A DNA stretch of 64,000 nucleotides from Escherichia phage BP32. Both the position numbers and the translations under genes were made by a program. This document shows positions 4,490-10,501 of this stretch, piece by piece (positions within the stretch are counted from its first letter, which is position 1; every line of letters starts with the position of its first letter). The notes beneath the pieces were generated by a model, which saw nothing but the letters and a program-made list of their open reading frames with translations, was not told where the DNA came from and ran no database searches. The stretch lies in the sequence record OR906198.1. The stretch is one strand, 5' to 3'.

Positions 4490-4872
4490 AATTCAGCGAC
4501 TTTTCACAAAGTGGAAAACCTTCAAAGGCAGATGAATATTTAGGTTTATTAATGGCTGCGCAAGCTTATTTTCATTCTGCGCATTTTGAAACTAAAAGTT
4601 ATGCTAGACACAAAGCATACGATTTTATTTTCTCTGAGTTGCCAGATTTGATTGACAAATTTGGTGAGCAGTATTTGGGGTATTCTGGTAGAAAATACAC
4701 ACCTTCAATTCCAGATGCTAGTAAACTTCCTACCGACACAATTAAAATGATTGATCGTATACTAGACCAATCTAACAGCATTTATAAAGAAATGCCTCCA
4801 GCCATTCAAAGCACGATAGATGATATTACTGGGATGTTTTACCAGAGTAAATATCTTCTTTCCCTCGAATAA
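4486..4872 (+). CDS. hypothetical protein
   Basis: 128 aa; GGAG RBS; start overlaps upstream stop. Confidence 0.6.
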
Positions 4873-4876
4873 CATT

Positions 4877-4899
4877 AGTCTCCTTCGGGAGACTTTTTT
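4877..4899 (+). terminator. rho-independent terminator hairpin (TTCG loop)
   Basis: agtctcc-ttcg-ggagact followed by T6. Confidence 0.75.
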
Positions 4900-4909
4900 C
4901 ATTTTACCG

Positions 4910-4939
4910 GTTTACTTTCCATTTGAGCTGTGATACTAT
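4910..4939 (+). promoter_or_regulatory. T4-type early promoter
   Basis: gtttac...17-18 bp...tactat directly after the terminator. Confidence 0.6.
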
Positions 4940-4967
4940 ACAACCATCGGATAAAGAGGAGAACATC

Positions 4968-5156
4968 ATGAAAATTGAAGCACTCAATCAAGAAGGAAAT
5001 ATCTACGTCATCATTAATGGTGATTTTTTCGTCGACATGGATGAAGTTACTAGTGAAGAACTTGTAGAACTTCTTAAGAAACGTTATGATATGTGTGATG
5101 AAGCTGCAACTCACATGGCGTGTGCAATATTCTCTCTTTCATATGTGGTGGAATAA
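4968..5156 (+). CDS. hypothetical acidic protein (62 aa)
   Basis: AGAGGAGA RBS before ATG 4968. Confidence 0.6.
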
Positions 5157-5359
5157 TGATTAGTATTGAACAAGCAGATAAAATTAAAGAATTGGTAGCT
5201 TTAATTCGCAAAGCAGATGAGGAACTTAGTGACTTTGCTTGGTTTTCGTCAGGCATTGCAAATAAAGGTATTGAAGAATTTGAAGCTAAAGTTGATAATG
5301 CTGTAGAAGCTTTAGATATGTTTCTTGATGAAATTATCGATCACAATACGAGAGTTTAA
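5156..5359 (+). CDS. hypothetical protein (67 aa)
   Basis: TAATG overlap with upstream stop. Confidence 0.55.
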   Translation: MISIEQADKIKELVALIRKADEELSDFAWFSSGIANKGIEEFEAKVDNAVEALDMFLDEIIDHNTRV

Positions 5360-5361
5360 GT

Positions 5362-5556
5362 ATGCTGACACACGAACAGTTTGAAAAAATCATTAAATTA
5401 GCACGTGATGTTGAAATAGATTCATATCAATTAGCAGTTGAGCACTGTGAAGGATATTCATACGAAGGTATAGCAGCAGCTAAAAAGGATTTGGATAAAT
5501 CTAAAGCTAAGTTAGTTCAATATCTTGAAATGATTAGGTGGAATAATGAAAACTGA
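5362..5556 (+). CDS. hypothetical protein (64 aa)
   Basis: ORF track; compact spacing. Confidence 0.55.
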   Translation: MLTHEQFEKIIKLARDVEIDSYQLAVEHCEGYSYEGIAAAKKDLDKSKAKLVQYLEMIRWNNEN

Positions 5557-5719
5557 AAAGCAGATGTTTTTAATGAAGCTAATTGAAGAATATGCTAATG
5601 CAGTTTCTGACTATGAGTATTCTGCTCGGGAAAGAGGTACAGCTTTCGCAAAGGAAGAAATGAAAATCATGGTTGATGCTCACACAAAACTCCAGAATTT
5701 TATTGAAAACGTCATTTAA
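5546..5719 (+). CDS. hypothetical small protein (57 aa)
   Basis: AGGTGG RBS; overlaps upstream gene end in another frame. Confidence 0.45.
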   Translation: MKTEKQMFLMKLIEEYANAVSDYEYSARERGTAFAKEEMKIMVDAHTKLQNFIENVI

Positions 5720-5721
5720 TG

Positions 5722-5751
5722 GTTTACAAGTTGGCAAGGTTATGGTATAGT
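5722..5751 (+). promoter_or_regulatory. T4-type early promoter
   Basis: gtttacaagttggcaaggttatggtatagt. Confidence 0.65.
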
Positions 5752-5779
5752 AATCTTGTCAACTGTCAAGGAGAAGAGA

Positions 5780-5886: not shown

Positions 5887-6441
5887 GTGAGTGAGTCGAA
5901 GAGAATCAATATGAAACGATTAGTATTAGAAGTTAGTCCGCTTTTTGGTGAATTGGCTATAGAAAAAGTAAATAACATGTATCGTTTGACGCAAGAAGAC
6001 GATATGCTATATTTTACGCCTAGTGAAATCATTCATTTAACCCAAATTGAATATCCTTATACCGATAAAATAGTAAGCATCAATGATGAGCATAAAATTC
6101 ATTTTTGTTCTTTATGCTCGGGATTTAGTATTAAAAGTGAGTCAATATGCTTATCAATTGATAATTGGGATAATTTTATAACTAAGATTAAATATTTTTA
6201 TTATTCTAATGAAAGGAAACATAGTTTAAAATGGTTTAAAAAATGTAATGCTATTATTACTAACACTTGCAATCAGAACGGTGAAACTATTTTAAACGTA
6301 TCAAAATGTTATGAAGATGGAGATGTCTTAACTATTCGTCAATCGGTAAATGATGTTAATGTTGTTGTATTAAACAAAGAAGAAGCTGTTTTATTAAAGA
6401 CTTATCTTGATTCTGTCATTCCAACTATGATTTCAAAGTGA
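5887..6441 (+). CDS. hypothetical protein, paralog A
   Basis: 184 aa; C-terminal segment similar to the next ORF; start uncertain (GTG 5887 or ATG 5911). Confidence 0.55.
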   Translation: MSESKRINMKRLVLEVSPLFGELAIEKVNNMYRLTQEDDMLYFTPSEIIHLTQIEYPYTDKIVSINDEHKIHFCSLCSGFSIKSESICLSIDNWDNFITKIKYFYYSNERKHSLKWFKKCNAIITNTCNQNGETILNVSKCYEDGDVLTIRQSVNDVNVVVLNKEEAVLLKTYLDSVIPTMISK

Positions 6442-6447
6442 GGAAAT

Positions 6448-6969
6448 ATGTTTATTTCAAGTGGAAGTGGTTTAATTCGTGTTGAATTTAAAAATGACAT
6501 CTTCCTTATTCAAGGAGATGATATTATTAAAATGAGTTATGACGAAATCAAGAAAATTTGTCACGCTCTTGAAAGTCATGGAAAGGAAAATGCTACTATC
6601 GATATAGGTGATTTATGGGTAACGCTTTATGAAGTATCCGAAGGATTTAACATTGAAGATGAAAATAACATTTTAGCTATTGATAAAAGGACCGATTTGT
6701 TTGATGTGTTAAAAGTTTATGAACAGTCAAACGGTGGAAGAAAAGCCGTATTGATTTATCAAAAACCGCATTCATGTGGAACTGCTTCAATCATTTCAAA
6801 TATTGAAGATGAAACTGATACCTATATGTGTGTTTTGAAAGCTGGTGGTGACCGTCATCCGGATTTTATTTCTATTCGTCAAAACAATGGAGAAATTTCA
6901 TTATCAAAATCAGAAGCTGAAGCTATGATTAAGTATTTAACAACTGTTACACCTTCAATGAAAGGATAA
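6448..6969 (+). CDS. hypothetical protein, paralog B
   Basis: 173 aa; C-terminus resembles that of the preceding ORF. Confidence 0.55.
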   Translation: MFISSGSGLIRVEFKNDIFLIQGDDIIKMSYDEIKKICHALESHGKENATIDIGDLWVTLYEVSEGFNIEDENNILAIDKRTDLFDVLKVYEQSNGGRKAVLIYQKPHSCGTASIISNIEDETDTYMCVLKAGGDRHPDFISIRQNNGEISLSKSEAEAMIKYLTTVTPSMKG

Positions 6970-6971
6970 TT

Positions 6972-7418
6972 ATGATTATTAATGAAAACTCTTGGCACGT
7001 TCGTATGCATGATTTCTTTTACTGGCAGCGTCCGAATTCTTTGTGTAAATATTTCTGGAAAATGGCGTGGACGTTCTTAGTTATCGGTGTTATTTGCACA
7101 TCGGGGCTATTAGGTAGTTGGGTGGTAGGACAAGCTATTTTAAGTCAATTTGGTGTTACAGGATTCTGGCTTCTACATGCAGGCGGAACCGTATTTGGTG
7201 TACTGATATTTGCTACGATTGTCATTATTGCAGTAGGTATAGCATATATTGTAGCTAAGATTTCAGGTTTATGGGAAGGAGTCAGGTATGATAGAGCGTG
7301 GAAGCGTCAACAAGACGAAGAAAACGGTATTGAACATCCTAAGAGTGTAATCGTTGAATACCTTAAAGCTAGTAAATCTAAAATCTGCCCTATGATAGAA
7401 TTTAAGGATGTTAAATGA
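6972..7418 (+). CDS. membrane protein (2-3 predicted TM helices)
   Basis: long hydrophobic stretches. Confidence 0.6.
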   Translation: MIINENSWHVRMHDFFYWQRPNSLCKYFWKMAWTFLVIGVICTSGLLGSWVVGQAILSQFGVTGFWLLHAGGTVFGVLIFATIVIIAVGIAYIVAKISGLWEGVRYDRAWKRQQDEENGIEHPKSVIVEYLKASKSKICPMIEFKDVK

Positions 7419-8425
7419 AAACAGTAATGAAAAGCTATTTTGGTAGTCATCTTTATGGAACTTCTACTCCAGAATCTGATGTAGATTTCAAAGAAATCTT
7501 TGTTCCTCCTGCTCGCGACATTCTTATCGGAAATGTTAAAGAGCATATGAGTAAAAACACTAACAACACATCATCTAAAAACACTAAAGATGATATTGAC
7601 CATGAACTATACAGTCTTAAGTATTTCTTTAAATTAGCAGCAGATGGTGAAACTGTAGCATTGGATATGCTCCATACTCCACCTGAACTGGTAGTTAAAT
7701 CTGATTTGCCTGATGTATGGAAGTTTATTCAAGACAATCGTTCTCGTTTTTATACGACTAACATGAAATCCTATTTAGGATATGTCCGCAAGCAAGCTTC
7801 TAAATACGGTGTCAAGGGTTCTCGTTTGGCTGCATTGCGTGATGTATTGAAAGTAGTTAATCAAATCCCTGATCAGTGGGTTGATTATCAAGAAGACGGT
7901 TCCATTAAGCAACGTCGTACTAAAGTTGAAGATATTAAGCATCGTCTTCCAGAGAACGAGTTCTGTGAATGGGTGTTCCATAATCACGAGAAAACAGGCC
8001 CGCAAACGTTCTATACTGTGTTGGGTCGTAAATATCAGACAACGCTTTCTCTTATTGAGCTTAAGCAGTCACTGAACAAATTAGATGCTGAATACGGCGA
8101 ACGTGCTCGTAAGGCTGAAGCGAATGAGGGCATTGACTGGAAAGCTCTTAGTCATGCTTGCCGTGGTGGACTCCAACTATTGGAAATTTACAAAACTGGT
8201 GATTTGGTTTATCCACTCCAAGATGCTCCATTTATTCTCGACGTGAAGTTGGGTAAACATCCATTTAAAACTGTTCAAGAGTTTTTGGAAGATGTGGTCG
8301 ATCAAGTAGAAGCAGCATCCATTGAAGCTTCTAAGAACGGTATGCAGCAAAAAGTAGACATGAGTTTCTGGGATGACTTCCTTGAGAGGGTTTATCTTGA
8401 AAACCACCGAAGTTATTATAAATGA
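7415..8425 (+). CDS. nucleotidyltransferase-fold protein (Pol-beta superfamily motif)
   Basis: N-terminal FGSHLYGTSTPESDVDF fits the hG[GS]x(9-13)DxD signature; 336 aa. Confidence 0.55.
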   Translation: MKTVMKSYFGSHLYGTSTPESDVDFKEIFVPPARDILIGNVKEHMSKNTNNTSSKNTKDDIDHELYSLKYFFKLAADGETVALDMLHTPPELVVKSDLPDVWKFIQDNRSRFYTTNMKSYLGYVRKQASKYGVKGSRLAALRDVLKVVNQIPDQWVDYQEDGSIKQRRTKVEDIKHRLPENEFCEWVFHNHEKTGPQTFYTVLGRKYQTTLSLIELKQSLNKLDAEYGERARKAEANEGIDWKALSHACRGGLQLLEIYKTGDLVYPLQDAPFILDVKLGKHPFKTVQEFLEDVVDQVEAASIEASKNGMQQKVDMSFWDDFLERVYLENHRSYYK

Positions 8426-8428
8426 TAA

Positions 8429-8452
8429 GGGAGCCTTCGGGCTCCCTTTTTT
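8429..8452 (+). terminator. rho-independent terminator (TTCG loop)
   Basis: gggagcc-ttcg-ggctccc followed by T6. Confidence 0.8.
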
Positions 8453-8476
8453 ATTTCAAAAATTTTTCATAAAACT

Positions 8477-8506
8477 GTTTACAAGCATAAAGCTTTATGG
8501 TACTAT
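8477..8506 (+). promoter_or_regulatory. T4-type early promoter with conserved leader
   Basis: gtttac...17 bp...tactat; leader to ATG 8541 nearly identical to the one at 35241-35291. Confidence 0.65.
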
Positions 8507-8540
8507 ACAACTATCAACTGATACGGATTTGGAGAATAAA

Positions 8541-9509
8541 ATGAAAACTGTAACTATCAATAAAGGTATCTACTTCGGTAAAGAAATCTCTGGAACTTTT
8601 GAGCTCTTAGGCGAATGGTTCCCAGATAATGCTCCGGTAGATGCACAAGGAGATGGTAAAGTTTTTGTTGAAATTGACGGTAAACGTCGCGGTGTTTGGG
8701 TTTACAAATCAGATATTTCATATGATGGTGTAAAAGTTGAAGAAGTTAAAGAATCATATGAAGATATGAAAACCCGCATTAATAAAAGATTTAATGTTAT
8801 GGGAATGATGACGAATGGTATTATTAATGGAAATATTCGTTCATTAATTATCTCTGGCGCAGCAGGTATTGGTAAAACGTATTCTTTAGATAAAGCTTTA
8901 AATAAAGCAAATGATATTGGATACATTGAATATAAAAGCATTAATGGTAAAATCTCTGGTATTGGTCTTTATGAGCAGCTTTGGAATAATCGTGAAGAGA
9001 ACTCTGTCCTTTTGATTGATGATGTGGATGTTTTCTCTGATATGGACATTCTTAATCTTCTGAAAGCTGCTCTGGACACTGGAGAGACCCGTAAAGTCTG
9101 CTGGAGCACTGCATCTTCTTACTTAGAAGAAAAAGGCATTGACCGTGAGTTTGAATTTAAAGGAACGATTGTTTTTATCACAAACGTTGATATTGACCGC
9201 GAATTAGACCGTGGTACTAAACTTGCCCCACACTTACAAGCATTAGTGTCCCGCTCAGTTTATTTAGATTTGGGTGTTCACACTAATGAAGAAATTATGG
9301 TCAGGGTTGAAGATGTTATTCTTTCAACCGACATGATGCAAAAGCGCGGTCTTTCTGATGAAGAAACTTATAAAGCATTATCATGGATGAAAGTTAATGT
9401 TAATCGTTTACGCAATGTTTCACTGCGTACTGCTCTTTATCTTGCTGACTTTATTATGACCGACAAAAACGGTTGGGAAGAAATTGCTGAGGTTACTCTT
9501 CTGAAATAA
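8541..9509 (+). CDS. AAA+ ATPase (Walker A/B)
   Basis: Walker A GAAGIGKTY, Walker B LLIDDVD; GGAGA RBS; the listed start at 8373 was rejected because it reads through the terminator and promoter. Confidence 0.7.
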   Translation: MKTVTINKGIYFGKEISGTFELLGEWFPDNAPVDAQGDGKVFVEIDGKRRGVWVYKSDISYDGVKVEEVKESYEDMKTRINKRFNVMGMMTNGIINGNIRSLIISGAAGIGKTYSLDKALNKANDIGYIEYKSINGKISGIGLYEQLWNNREENSVLLIDDVDVFSDMDILNLLKAALDTGETRKVCWSTASSYLEEKGIDREFEFKGTIVFITNVDIDRELDRGTKLAPHLQALVSRSVYLDLGVHTNEEIMVRVEDVILSTDMMQKRGLSDEETYKALSWMKVNVNRLRNVSLRTALYLADFIMTDKNGWEEIAEVTLLK

Positions 9510-9610: not shown

Positions 9611-9913
9611 ATGTTATACTCAAAGGCTCGTGAAATTTACGAAACTAAAATTAAAGAAGCAGTATTTCAATTCGCAACGACAATGCGATGGACAAATGAC
9701 TGGGAGTATTCAAAAAATCATAAGAAGCCCATGGTGACAAGAAAGGCTCATATGTTAGTGTTAATAGACCGTGAGCAGATTAAAGCCCGAGAAGCCCTCC
9801 AGAATCATAAAAAGGCTGCCTTTGAATGGTTTATGGATAATACTGCTCCTGAGACTAAGAAAGCGGTAAGTGCATGGTTCAGTGGAAAAAATTGTGAAAG
9901 AAGTTTCTTTTAG
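9611..9913 (+). CDS. hypothetical protein (100 aa)
   Basis: GGAGG RBS 5 nt upstream of ATG 9611. Confidence 0.55.
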   Translation: MLYSKAREIYETKIKEAVFQFATTMRWTNDWEYSKNHKKPMVTRKAHMLVLIDREQIKAREALQNHKKAAFEWFMDNTAPETKKAVSAWFSGKNCERSFF

Positions 9914-9915
9914 TT

Positions 9916-9945
9916 GTTTACAAGACTGTTCCTCTGTGGTACTAT
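9916..9945 (+). promoter_or_regulatory. T4-type early promoter with conserved leader
   Basis: near-identical copy of 63098-63157. Confidence 0.65.
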
Positions 9946-9973
9946 ACAACTATCAACTACGGAGGAACAGAAA

Positions 9974-10501
9974 ATGAACGCTAAAGATATTTTCAACTTG
10001 GTAAATTACAACGATGGTAAATTTAAATCTGAAGCACAAAGCAAGTTCTTTAACGACATCTCAATCGGAGGTGAAATCACTGTTGATGGAGGACAAATTT
10101 ACAAATCCCGTTGGAATTGGATCGTTATTATTGATGAGATCGGTATTGTAGAAATTTACAAGAATACGAATAAAAATAGTACATTACACTGGTCTCGTGA
10201 TACTAACGAACAGTACAAAAAGGATAAAGCATCTAAATTATCTCGTGTAACTCAAGAAGATATTGAGTTCATCAAGAAAGATATTTTAATGTATGATAAC
10301 TTAATTGCTGAAGAGCAAGCTGTTATTGATAAATTTGACGAGATTAAAGCTTCTCGTGAAATTCCTGATTTTATGAAAGAATCAGTAAATGAACGATACA
10401 CTCTCATTTCAGAGCGTATTGAAACTTACAAAAAGCAAAGAGCTGAACGCCAAAATACTCTTCGGAAGTTTGAAGAACGGTTAAAGACGGTACTCGCATA
10501 A
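9974..10501 (+). CDS. hypothetical protein with C-terminal coiled coil
   Basis: GGAGG RBS; 175 aa. Confidence 0.6.
   Translation: MNAKDIFNLVNYNDGKFKSEAQSKFFNDISIGGEITVDGGQIYKSRWNWIVIIDEIGIVEIYKNTNKNSTLHWSRDTNEQYKKDKASKLSRVTQEDIEFIKKDILMYDNLIAEEQAVIDKFDEIKASREIPDFMKESVNERYTLISERIETYKKQRAERQNTLRKFEERLKTVLA

Follow-up and report, generated by a model that had tools for sequence, protein, structure and literature searches.

A stretch of 64,000 nucleotides of Escherichia phage BP32 (OR906198.1; the window, hereafter) was analysed with respect to two neighbouring genes, nrdC.11 and nrdC.10, orthologous to the T4 early genes of the same names. The preferred reading, with a probability of roughly 0.55, is that NrdC.11 is a nucleotidyltransferase (NTase) acting in the repair of RNA ends, and that NrdC.10 is a separate AAA+ ATPase, both genes standing together by synteny and not as a module. 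The product of the open reading frame (ORF) 7415-8425 was 98% identical to T4 NrdC.11 (NP_049709, labelled 'nucleotidyltransferase' in RefSeq), and that of ORF 8541-9509 was 99% identical to T4 NrdC.10 (NP_049708). These are independent and already catalogued T4 early genes, assigned by Nolan et al. 2006 (PMC1524935) to COG3541 (nucleotidyltransferase) and to the AAA ATPases, respectively. Moreover, an RNA-repair role has already been predicted for RlaP proteins, the family of NrdC.11, in general (PMC7824862; 2025 preprint, bioRxiv 10.64898/2025.12.29.696909), so that the genes, their domains and the hypothesis of RNA repair had all been published before. The present analysis adds the conservation of residues in 106 homologues, a confident structural model and the RNA-repair neighbourhood of the bacterial homologues (32 of 80 loci).

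Family, fold and conserved residues of NrdC.11

The Pfam profile PF10127 (RlaP, 'RNA repair pathway DNA polymerase beta family') matched NrdC.11 with an E-value of 3e-11 and 43.9 bits, the curated cut-off being 23 bits, and all the 120 close homologues listed had a precomputed PF10127 assignment. An exhaustive HMMER search gave 3421 clusters of the NrdC.11 family at 50% identity, nearly all of them full length (300–350 amino acids), and PHROG 388 ('nucleotidyltransferase') was matched at 1e-136. The NrdC.11 family was then compared by hhalign with a profile of 18 canonical RlaP sequences, where only the N-terminal core aligned (positions 4–92 vs. 31–112, E=8.4e-5), and for this reason NrdC.11 is classified, on sequence grounds, as a divergent RlaP subfamily. 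Within this core, residues 9–25 (FGSHLYGTSTPESDVDF) aligned to the canonical motif ESGSRAWGFPSxDSDYD, and residues G10/S11, D22/D24, D62 and D84 aligned to the invariant G37/S38, D49/D51, D82 and E104 of canonical RlaP, D62 being probably the third catalytic carboxylate. The catalytic chemistry is very likely common to NrdC.11 and canonical RlaP, while a common substrate specificity is less certain. The plan of an NTase domain followed by a C-terminal helical domain, known from the crystal structure of PfRlaP, also appears in the model of NrdC.11 and may be common to NrdC.11 and canonical RlaP. In contrast, they form separate sequence clusters, often encoded in tandem in bacteria. The NrdC.11 type is the only one in T4-like phages, and the canonical type appeared in 80 phage records, none of them T4-like and many of them from jumbo phages (e.g. 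phiKZ).

In an alignment of the 106 homologues (34–54% identity), G10, S11, S21, D22 and D24 were invariant, while D60, D62 and D84 were conserved in at least 90% of the sequences. Residue 60 is an aspartate in the window (codon 7592-7594), as in at least 90% of the family, whereas the T4 reference (NC_000866) has N60; the same reference has an X at residue 101. Furthermore, the C-terminal part showed a conserved set of its own (Y227, G228, R230, D241, W242, K243, H247, R250, P267, K278 and G280), of which R230, K243, H247 and R250 were invariant. An AlphaFold2 model built on this alignment had a mean predicted local distance difference test (pLDDT) score of 94.9 and a predicted template modelling (pTM) score of 0.85, and comprised an NTase core (approximately residues 1–95), helical segments, a beta-rich insert (154–208) and a C-terminal helical domain (213–335). 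Its best matches among solved structures were Pol-beta-type NTases and not cGAS/DncV-like enzymes, and the long C-terminal helices drew matches to HEPN/KNTase-like helical domains; searches of solved structures by sequence, with single sequences as well as profiles, gave no significant match. A previous reading of this DNA from sequence alone had recognized the Pol-beta core from the motif at residues 9–25, which is indeed present, and had proposed to check the conservation of the acidic residues and the predicted structure. This call stands, because the confidently predicted fold is of the NTase type and the aspartates are conserved (D22 and D24 invariant, D62 in at least 90% of the homologues).

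Regarding the activity of the family, Carruthers, Fatma and Huang, in a preprint of December 2025, placed T4 NrdC.11 in RlaP 'cluster 5', of unknown function, and characterized two Pseudomonas enzymes, PfRlaP and PaRlaP (bioRxiv 10.64898/2025.12.29.696909). These added 1–2 nucleoside monophosphates (NMPs), in a template-independent manner, to the 3′-OH ends of RNA, with a preference for Mn2+ and for a nicked-tRNA mimic, used neither DNA nor protein, left the proteins of E. coli unlabelled, and raised the aminoacylation of a repaired tRNA that was missing one nucleotide. Moreover, the crystal structure of PfRlaP showed a substrate cleft formed by the C-terminal helical domain that follows its NTase domain (same preprint). 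Previously, Iyer et al. 2021 had stated that RlaP and RNA ligases show matching distributions among jumbo phages, and had predicted that RlaP puts back, before ligation, the nucleotides taken by RloC-type nucleases (PMC7824862).

Gene neighbourhood of NrdC.11-type genes

Full-length NrdC.11-type genes (32–54% identity) were taken from 80 loci of bacteria or archaea, and their neighbours within 5 kb were clustered and checked against Pfam. A canonical PF10127 RlaP gene appeared directly downstream of the NrdC.11-type gene in 22–25 loci, followed in frequency by genes for RtcB (7–10 loci, from diverse phyla), Hen1 (6–7 loci), the kinase-phosphatase-ligase Pnkp (six loci, four of which came from one genus), HD_4 hydrolases (4–5 loci) and TROVE/Ro60 (3–5 loci). 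Overall, at least one of RtcB, Pnkp, Hen1, TROVE/Ro60 and canonical RlaP was found in 32 of the 80 loci, so that the association with RNA repair covers the NrdC.11 subfamily and not canonical RlaP alone. From a rough estimate of gene frequencies, RtcB or Pnkp/Hen1 would be found this close by chance in well under one of the 80 loci.

The tandems of NrdC.11-type and canonical genes were on the same strand (loci L123–L194; e.g. L188:8001-8945 followed by L188:8976-9767), often within RtcB or Pnkp/Hen1 operons. Three distant phage loci (L059, at 4725-5762, L069 and L072) had, approximately 5 kb upstream of their NrdC.11 homologue, a gene for a CCA-adding tRNA nucleotidyltransferase with the PolyA_pol head domain of Pfam. 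Genes resembling phage NAD+ salvage or reconstitution genes were also seen in distant phage loci, namely one of 532 amino acids similar to nicotinate or nicotinamide phosphoribosyltransferases (NAPRTase/NAMPT), 1.8–3.6 kb downstream of the homologue (L059, L060, L061, L063, L066, L073 and L079), and one of 290 amino acids similar to phosphoribosyl pyrophosphate (PRPP) synthetase, at a distance of 1.3–6.1 kb (L069, L072, L073, L075 and L079); in L073, they were found at L073:12417-14012 and L073:11238-12107, respectively. In addition, homologues with 52–54% identity, a level also seen in T4-like phages of Acinetobacter and Klebsiella, were located on a 178-kb contig of Flagellimonas marina (L120, NZ_JBHSCL010000010) and on a 43-kb contig of a Bacilli metagenome-assembled genome (L119), and these 'bacterial' contigs may in fact represent phage genomes, or contigs of phages that were placed in bacterial assemblies during binning.

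Proposed role in RNA-end repair

By analogy with the characterized enzymes, the intact two-metal centre of NrdC.11, formed by the G-S pair, the DxD motif and D62, would add one or few NMPs to the 3′-OH of damaged RNA. The likely substrates would be the tRNA halves generated by host anticodon nucleases, with 5′-halves short of a nucleotide. T4 Pnkp would first strip the cyclic phosphate from the 5′-half, NrdC.11 would then extend its 3′-OH, and T4 Rnl1, which joins 5′-phosphate (5′-P) and 3′-OH ends, would finally reseal the tRNA, for instance after the action of an RloC-type nuclease. The 5′-P/3′-OH end chemistry of T4 Pnkp and Rnl1 is compatible with the products of RlaP, and the incompatibility with RtcB, a topic of the preprint, does not arise here. 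A more specific and tentative proposal is that NrdC.11 might be the missing third part of T4 tRNA repair, restoring the nucleotide excised by RloC for Pnkp and Rnl1, with the divergent C-terminal domain and the beta insert giving its subfamily a substrate preference unlike that of the canonical RlaP beside which it is encoded in bacteria. If true, NrdC.11 would be the answer of the phage to a counter-counter-defence of the host. Phage tRNA repair has its classic model in T4, and the design of focused experiments is eased by the conserved residues, the confident model and the bacterial RNA-repair neighbourhood of the NrdC.11 subfamily.

However, several observations weigh against an RNA-repair role. 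To begin with, the PF10127 match was confined to residues 6–134 of NrdC.11 (positions 23–142 of the 249 of the profile), the C-terminal half did not align with canonical RlaP at the profile level, and the beta insert has no room in the canonical proteins, which at 250–270 amino acids are approximately 70 residues shorter. As the C-terminal half, presumed to bind the substrate, and the insert both diverge, the substrate specificity of NrdC.11 could differ from that of canonical RlaP. Moreover, the biochemistry of the family comes from PfRlaP and PaRlaP, which fall outside the NrdC.11 subfamily (cluster 5). Regarding the neighbourhood, 48 of the 80 bacterial and archaeal loci, many of them on short contigs, showed no RNA-repair gene within 5 kb, and the frequent position of the NrdC.11 type beside canonical RlaP in bacteria suggests non-redundant or heteromeric roles. 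A search of the window and of 114 viral loci for RNA ligase, Pnkp and RtcB close to NrdC.11 yielded a single RtcB (L079, at a distance of 3.4 kb), and neither the window nor the T4-like loci had an RNA ligase or Pnkp gene near nrdC.11. Finally, nrdC.11 lies inside a deletable T4 segment and is dispensable on laboratory hosts (PMC9825161).

Alternative activities of NrdC.11

Through its divergent C-terminal half and its beta insert, NrdC.11 could also bind a substrate different from RNA, and the combination of an NTase core with a helical domain similar to HEPN/KNTase_C resembles both the aminoglycoside and lincosamide NTases and the MNT-HEPN pairs. NrdC.11 might then nucleotidylate a protein or a small molecule, either in the manner of kanamycin nucleotidyltransferase (KNTase), aminoglycoside nucleotidyltransferases (ANT) and LinB or by AMPylation of the MNT type, perhaps acting on a host factor during takeover. 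This is considered rather unlikely, as the bacterial RlaPs that were assayed labelled neither the proteins of E. coli nor DNA, the equivalog model of MntA, with a cut-off of 60 bits, scored NrdC.11 at 13.2, the Pfam model NTP_transf_2 stayed under its cut-off with only 14 bits, and the RNA-repair neighbourhood holds for the NrdC.11 subfamily itself. Furthermore, no small HEPN gene was found adjacent to nrdC.11, as would be the case in an MNT or type VII toxin-antitoxin system.

A signalling or oligonucleotide-synthesising enzyme, cGAS/DncV-like or HalB-like, that makes or mimics a nucleotide signal against host immunity is judged highly improbable. Indeed, cGAS, DncV and other cGAS/DncV-like nucleotidyltransferases (CD-NTases) were missing from the top 50–60 structural matches of the model, PADLOC gave no match at E≤1 for NrdC.11 or NrdC.10, and the likeness to HalB was found at the fold level only and confined to the NTase core. 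In particular, HalB of Hailong (PDB 9dbh), the NTase-like protein 3c18 and kanamycin nucleotidyltransferase (1kny/6nlt) showed identities of 9–16% and template modelling scores (TM-scores) of 0.24–0.30 with NrdC.11, and no relation to any of the three was detected at the sequence level. Their substrates differ as well, with HalB synthesizing DNA oligomers and kanamycin nucleotidyltransferase modifying aminoglycosides. In contrast, NrdC.11 belongs by its sequence to RlaP, whose extension of RNA ends is of 1–2 nucleotides only, and its bacterial homologues are found in RNA-repair operons and not in defence islands. The sequence-only reading had suggested that these genes might make or modify nucleotides or tag proteins during host takeover or defence evasion; given the CD-NTase, PADLOC and MntA results, cGAS/DncV-like signalling and protein tagging found no support, and the part on defence evasion survives only in the form of RNA repair against host ribotoxins, which NrdC.11 may perform.

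NrdC.10 and its association with NrdC.11

NrdC.10 had been called an AAA+ ATPase from the motifs GAAGIGKTY (Walker A) and LLIDDVD (Walker B), and this was confirmed, with both motifs present in an intact ORF that ends at 9509. Together with sensor 1 and an arginine-finger motif, they place the protein in the AAA+ superfamily, and the sensor 1 residue N215 as well as R291 and R296 were invariant in the same 72–74 sequences in which the Walker motifs were examined. The S237-R238 pair is presumably the arginine finger, by analogy with clamp-loader-type AAA+ proteins. The model (pLDDT of 90.2) comprised an N-terminal beta domain (approximately residues 1–62), for which no match was found, a linker helix, an AAA+ core (100–245) and a helical lid (249–320). 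Nevertheless, NrdC.10 did not fit any single AAA+ family (clamp loader, DnaA/Hda, MoxR or STAND), as no hidden Markov model (HMM) scored above its cut-off, including all the Pfam AAA models, and no clade was clearly best; among initiator, clamp-loader and MoxR proteins (Cdc6/ORC, DnaA/Hda, RFC, NorQ/CbbQ and the MCM core), none stood out. For the two proteins, NrdC.11 and NrdC.10, NCBIfam matches were sub-threshold only (MntA and Hda). The T4 clamp loader, gp44/62, is encoded elsewhere in the window and is distinct from NrdC.10. Distant NrdC.10 genes had no recurrent neighbour and no conserved partner gene.

The remaining alternative is that the NTase and the ATPase form a two-gene module, in which, for example, the ATPase remodels or delivers a target that the NTase nucleotidylates. 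Both genes are early, adjacent and co-oriented in T4-like phages, and NrdC.10 was always downstream of NrdC.11 where both were present (35 loci), with a gap that varied from 112 to 2290 bp, meaning that other genes insert between them. However, NrdC.10 was found within 10 kb in only those 35 of the 78 NrdC.11 loci from IMG/VR and was absent in 43, and its presence depended on the identity of NrdC.11 (30 of 37 loci at 60% or more, five of 41 below 60%, and none below 50%), with three loci at 82% identity also lacking NrdC.10 within 10 kb. Conversely, NrdC.11 was within 10 kb in nine of 36 NrdC.10 loci, which were only the closest ones (at least 66% identity), and was absent in 27. In Vibrio phage nt-1, where NrdC.10 lies between nrdC/vs.1 and the topoisomerase gene gp52, approximately 60 kb separated the two genes, and in one contig of IMG/VR approximately 40 kb. 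In addition, the numbers of records per host genus differed between the two genes (55 vs. 121 for Vibrio, and 286 vs. 149 for Klebsiella), the recurrent neighbours of the bacterial NrdC.11 homologues did not include such an ATPase, and nrdC.11 is set apart from nrdC.10 by a strong terminator followed by a distinct promoter. The joint action proposed from the sequence alone, to which very little credence can be given, was thus not upheld: adjacency was restricted to the closer T4-like lineages, and the weak linkage, along with the terminator and the promoter, makes it best read as synteny inherited in one group of T4-like phages. NrdC.10 may then work on its own, from its own early promoter, as an ATP-driven remodeller or loader. 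Recognizing that NrdC.10 is not a partner avoids a false annotation as an 'NTase + ATPase system'.

Genomic setting and intergenic signals

The segment analysed belongs to a Tequatrovirus (T4-like), with a 2.1-kb query being 97–99% identical to hundreds of T4-like phages. The placement in a tk-nrdC block, made from the sequence alone, agrees with the gene order, which is collinear with that of T4 (tk...nrdC.11-nrdC.10...nrdC-pin-49, an early region). The order and orientation of both genes and their placement in the tk-nrdC early region are shared with T4, which differs upstream of nrdC.11, where it carries the homing endonuclease gene mobD and the window carries a gene for a membrane protein of 148 amino acids. 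A few amino acid substitutions, such as D60 for N60 in NrdC.11, also distinguish the window from T4. The features of the region are collected in Table 1.

Table 1. Coordinates in the window of the genes, motifs and signals of the nrdC.11-nrdC.10 region (aa, amino acids; CDS, coding sequence)
Feature	Position	Strand	Remarks
Predicted membrane protein, 148 aa, PHROG 944	6972..7418	+	ATGA overlap of its stop codon with the start of nrdC.11
nrdC.11 CDS	7415..8425	+	336 aa; T4 NrdC.11 orthologue; RlaP-family (PF10127) Pol-beta nucleotidyltransferase
Codons F9-F25, FGSHLYGTSTPESDVDF	7439..7489	+	hG[GS] helix cap (G10, S11) and DxD metal ligands (D22, D24)
Codons D60-I61-D62	7592..7600	+	D60 and D62 at least 90% conserved; D62 on strand 61–67 of the model
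Codon D84, ALDMLH helix	7664..7666	+	Conserved acid; equivalent of the invariant E104 (xEWL) of canonical RlaP
Intrinsic terminator	8427..8454	+	GGGAGCC-UUCG-GGCUCCC hairpin, then U-run; closes the nrdC.11 transcription unit
T4-type early promoter	8478..8506	+	(G)TTTACA-17-TACTAT, upstream TG; drives nrdC.10
nrdC.10 CDS	8541..9509	+	322 aa; T4 NrdC.10 orthologue; AAA+ ATPase
Walker A / P-loop, G106-AAGIGK112-T113	8856..8879	+	G106, G109 and K112 invariant
Walker B, D160-D161 in LLIDDVD	9018..9023	+	Invariant
S237-R238 in ALVSRS, SRC-like	9249..9254	+	Invariant; downstream of sensor 1 (N215)

The terminator and the new early promoter that had been noticed between both ORFs were found as described. 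The hairpin at 8427-8448 has a stem of 9 bp and a UUCG loop, with a folding energy of −19.3 kcal/mol (z=−4.4), and is listed as a terminator in the annotation of phage SP1. A near-identical copy of the promoter is located at 9917-9945, upstream of nrdC.8, the next gene but one; the two near-identical stretches, 8472-8520 and 9911-9958 (GTTTACAAG ... TGGTACTATACAACTATCAACT), thus precede nrdC.10 and nrdC.8. If translated, they give similar spurious N-terminal extensions to two mechanical ORFs, 8373-9509 and 9914-10501, the former starting inside the previous gene and running across the terminator. The coding sequence of nrdC.10 actually begins with the ATG at 8541, preceded by a GGAG, and T4 NrdC.10 matches the resulting protein from residue 1.

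A homologue of the 148-amino-acid membrane protein was found upstream of NrdC.11 in 44 of the 78 viral loci. It was considered as a partner of NrdC.11 and discarded, since T4 does not have the gene at that position and the protein showed no informative domain. Further upstream, two tandem paralogues (5887-6441 and 6448-6969) carry the Pfam domains T4_y05I_N and T4_y05I_C and are MobD.1-like ('putative transcription factor'). Finally, the orthologues of NrdC.10 and NrdC.11 are often labelled 'thioredoxin' in GenBank phage records, and single records name NrdC.11 'HNH homing endonuclease' and NrdC.10 'prohead core protein' or 'processivity clamp loader', labels that were apparently carried over either from adjacent genes or from the naming of the nrdC.x genes.

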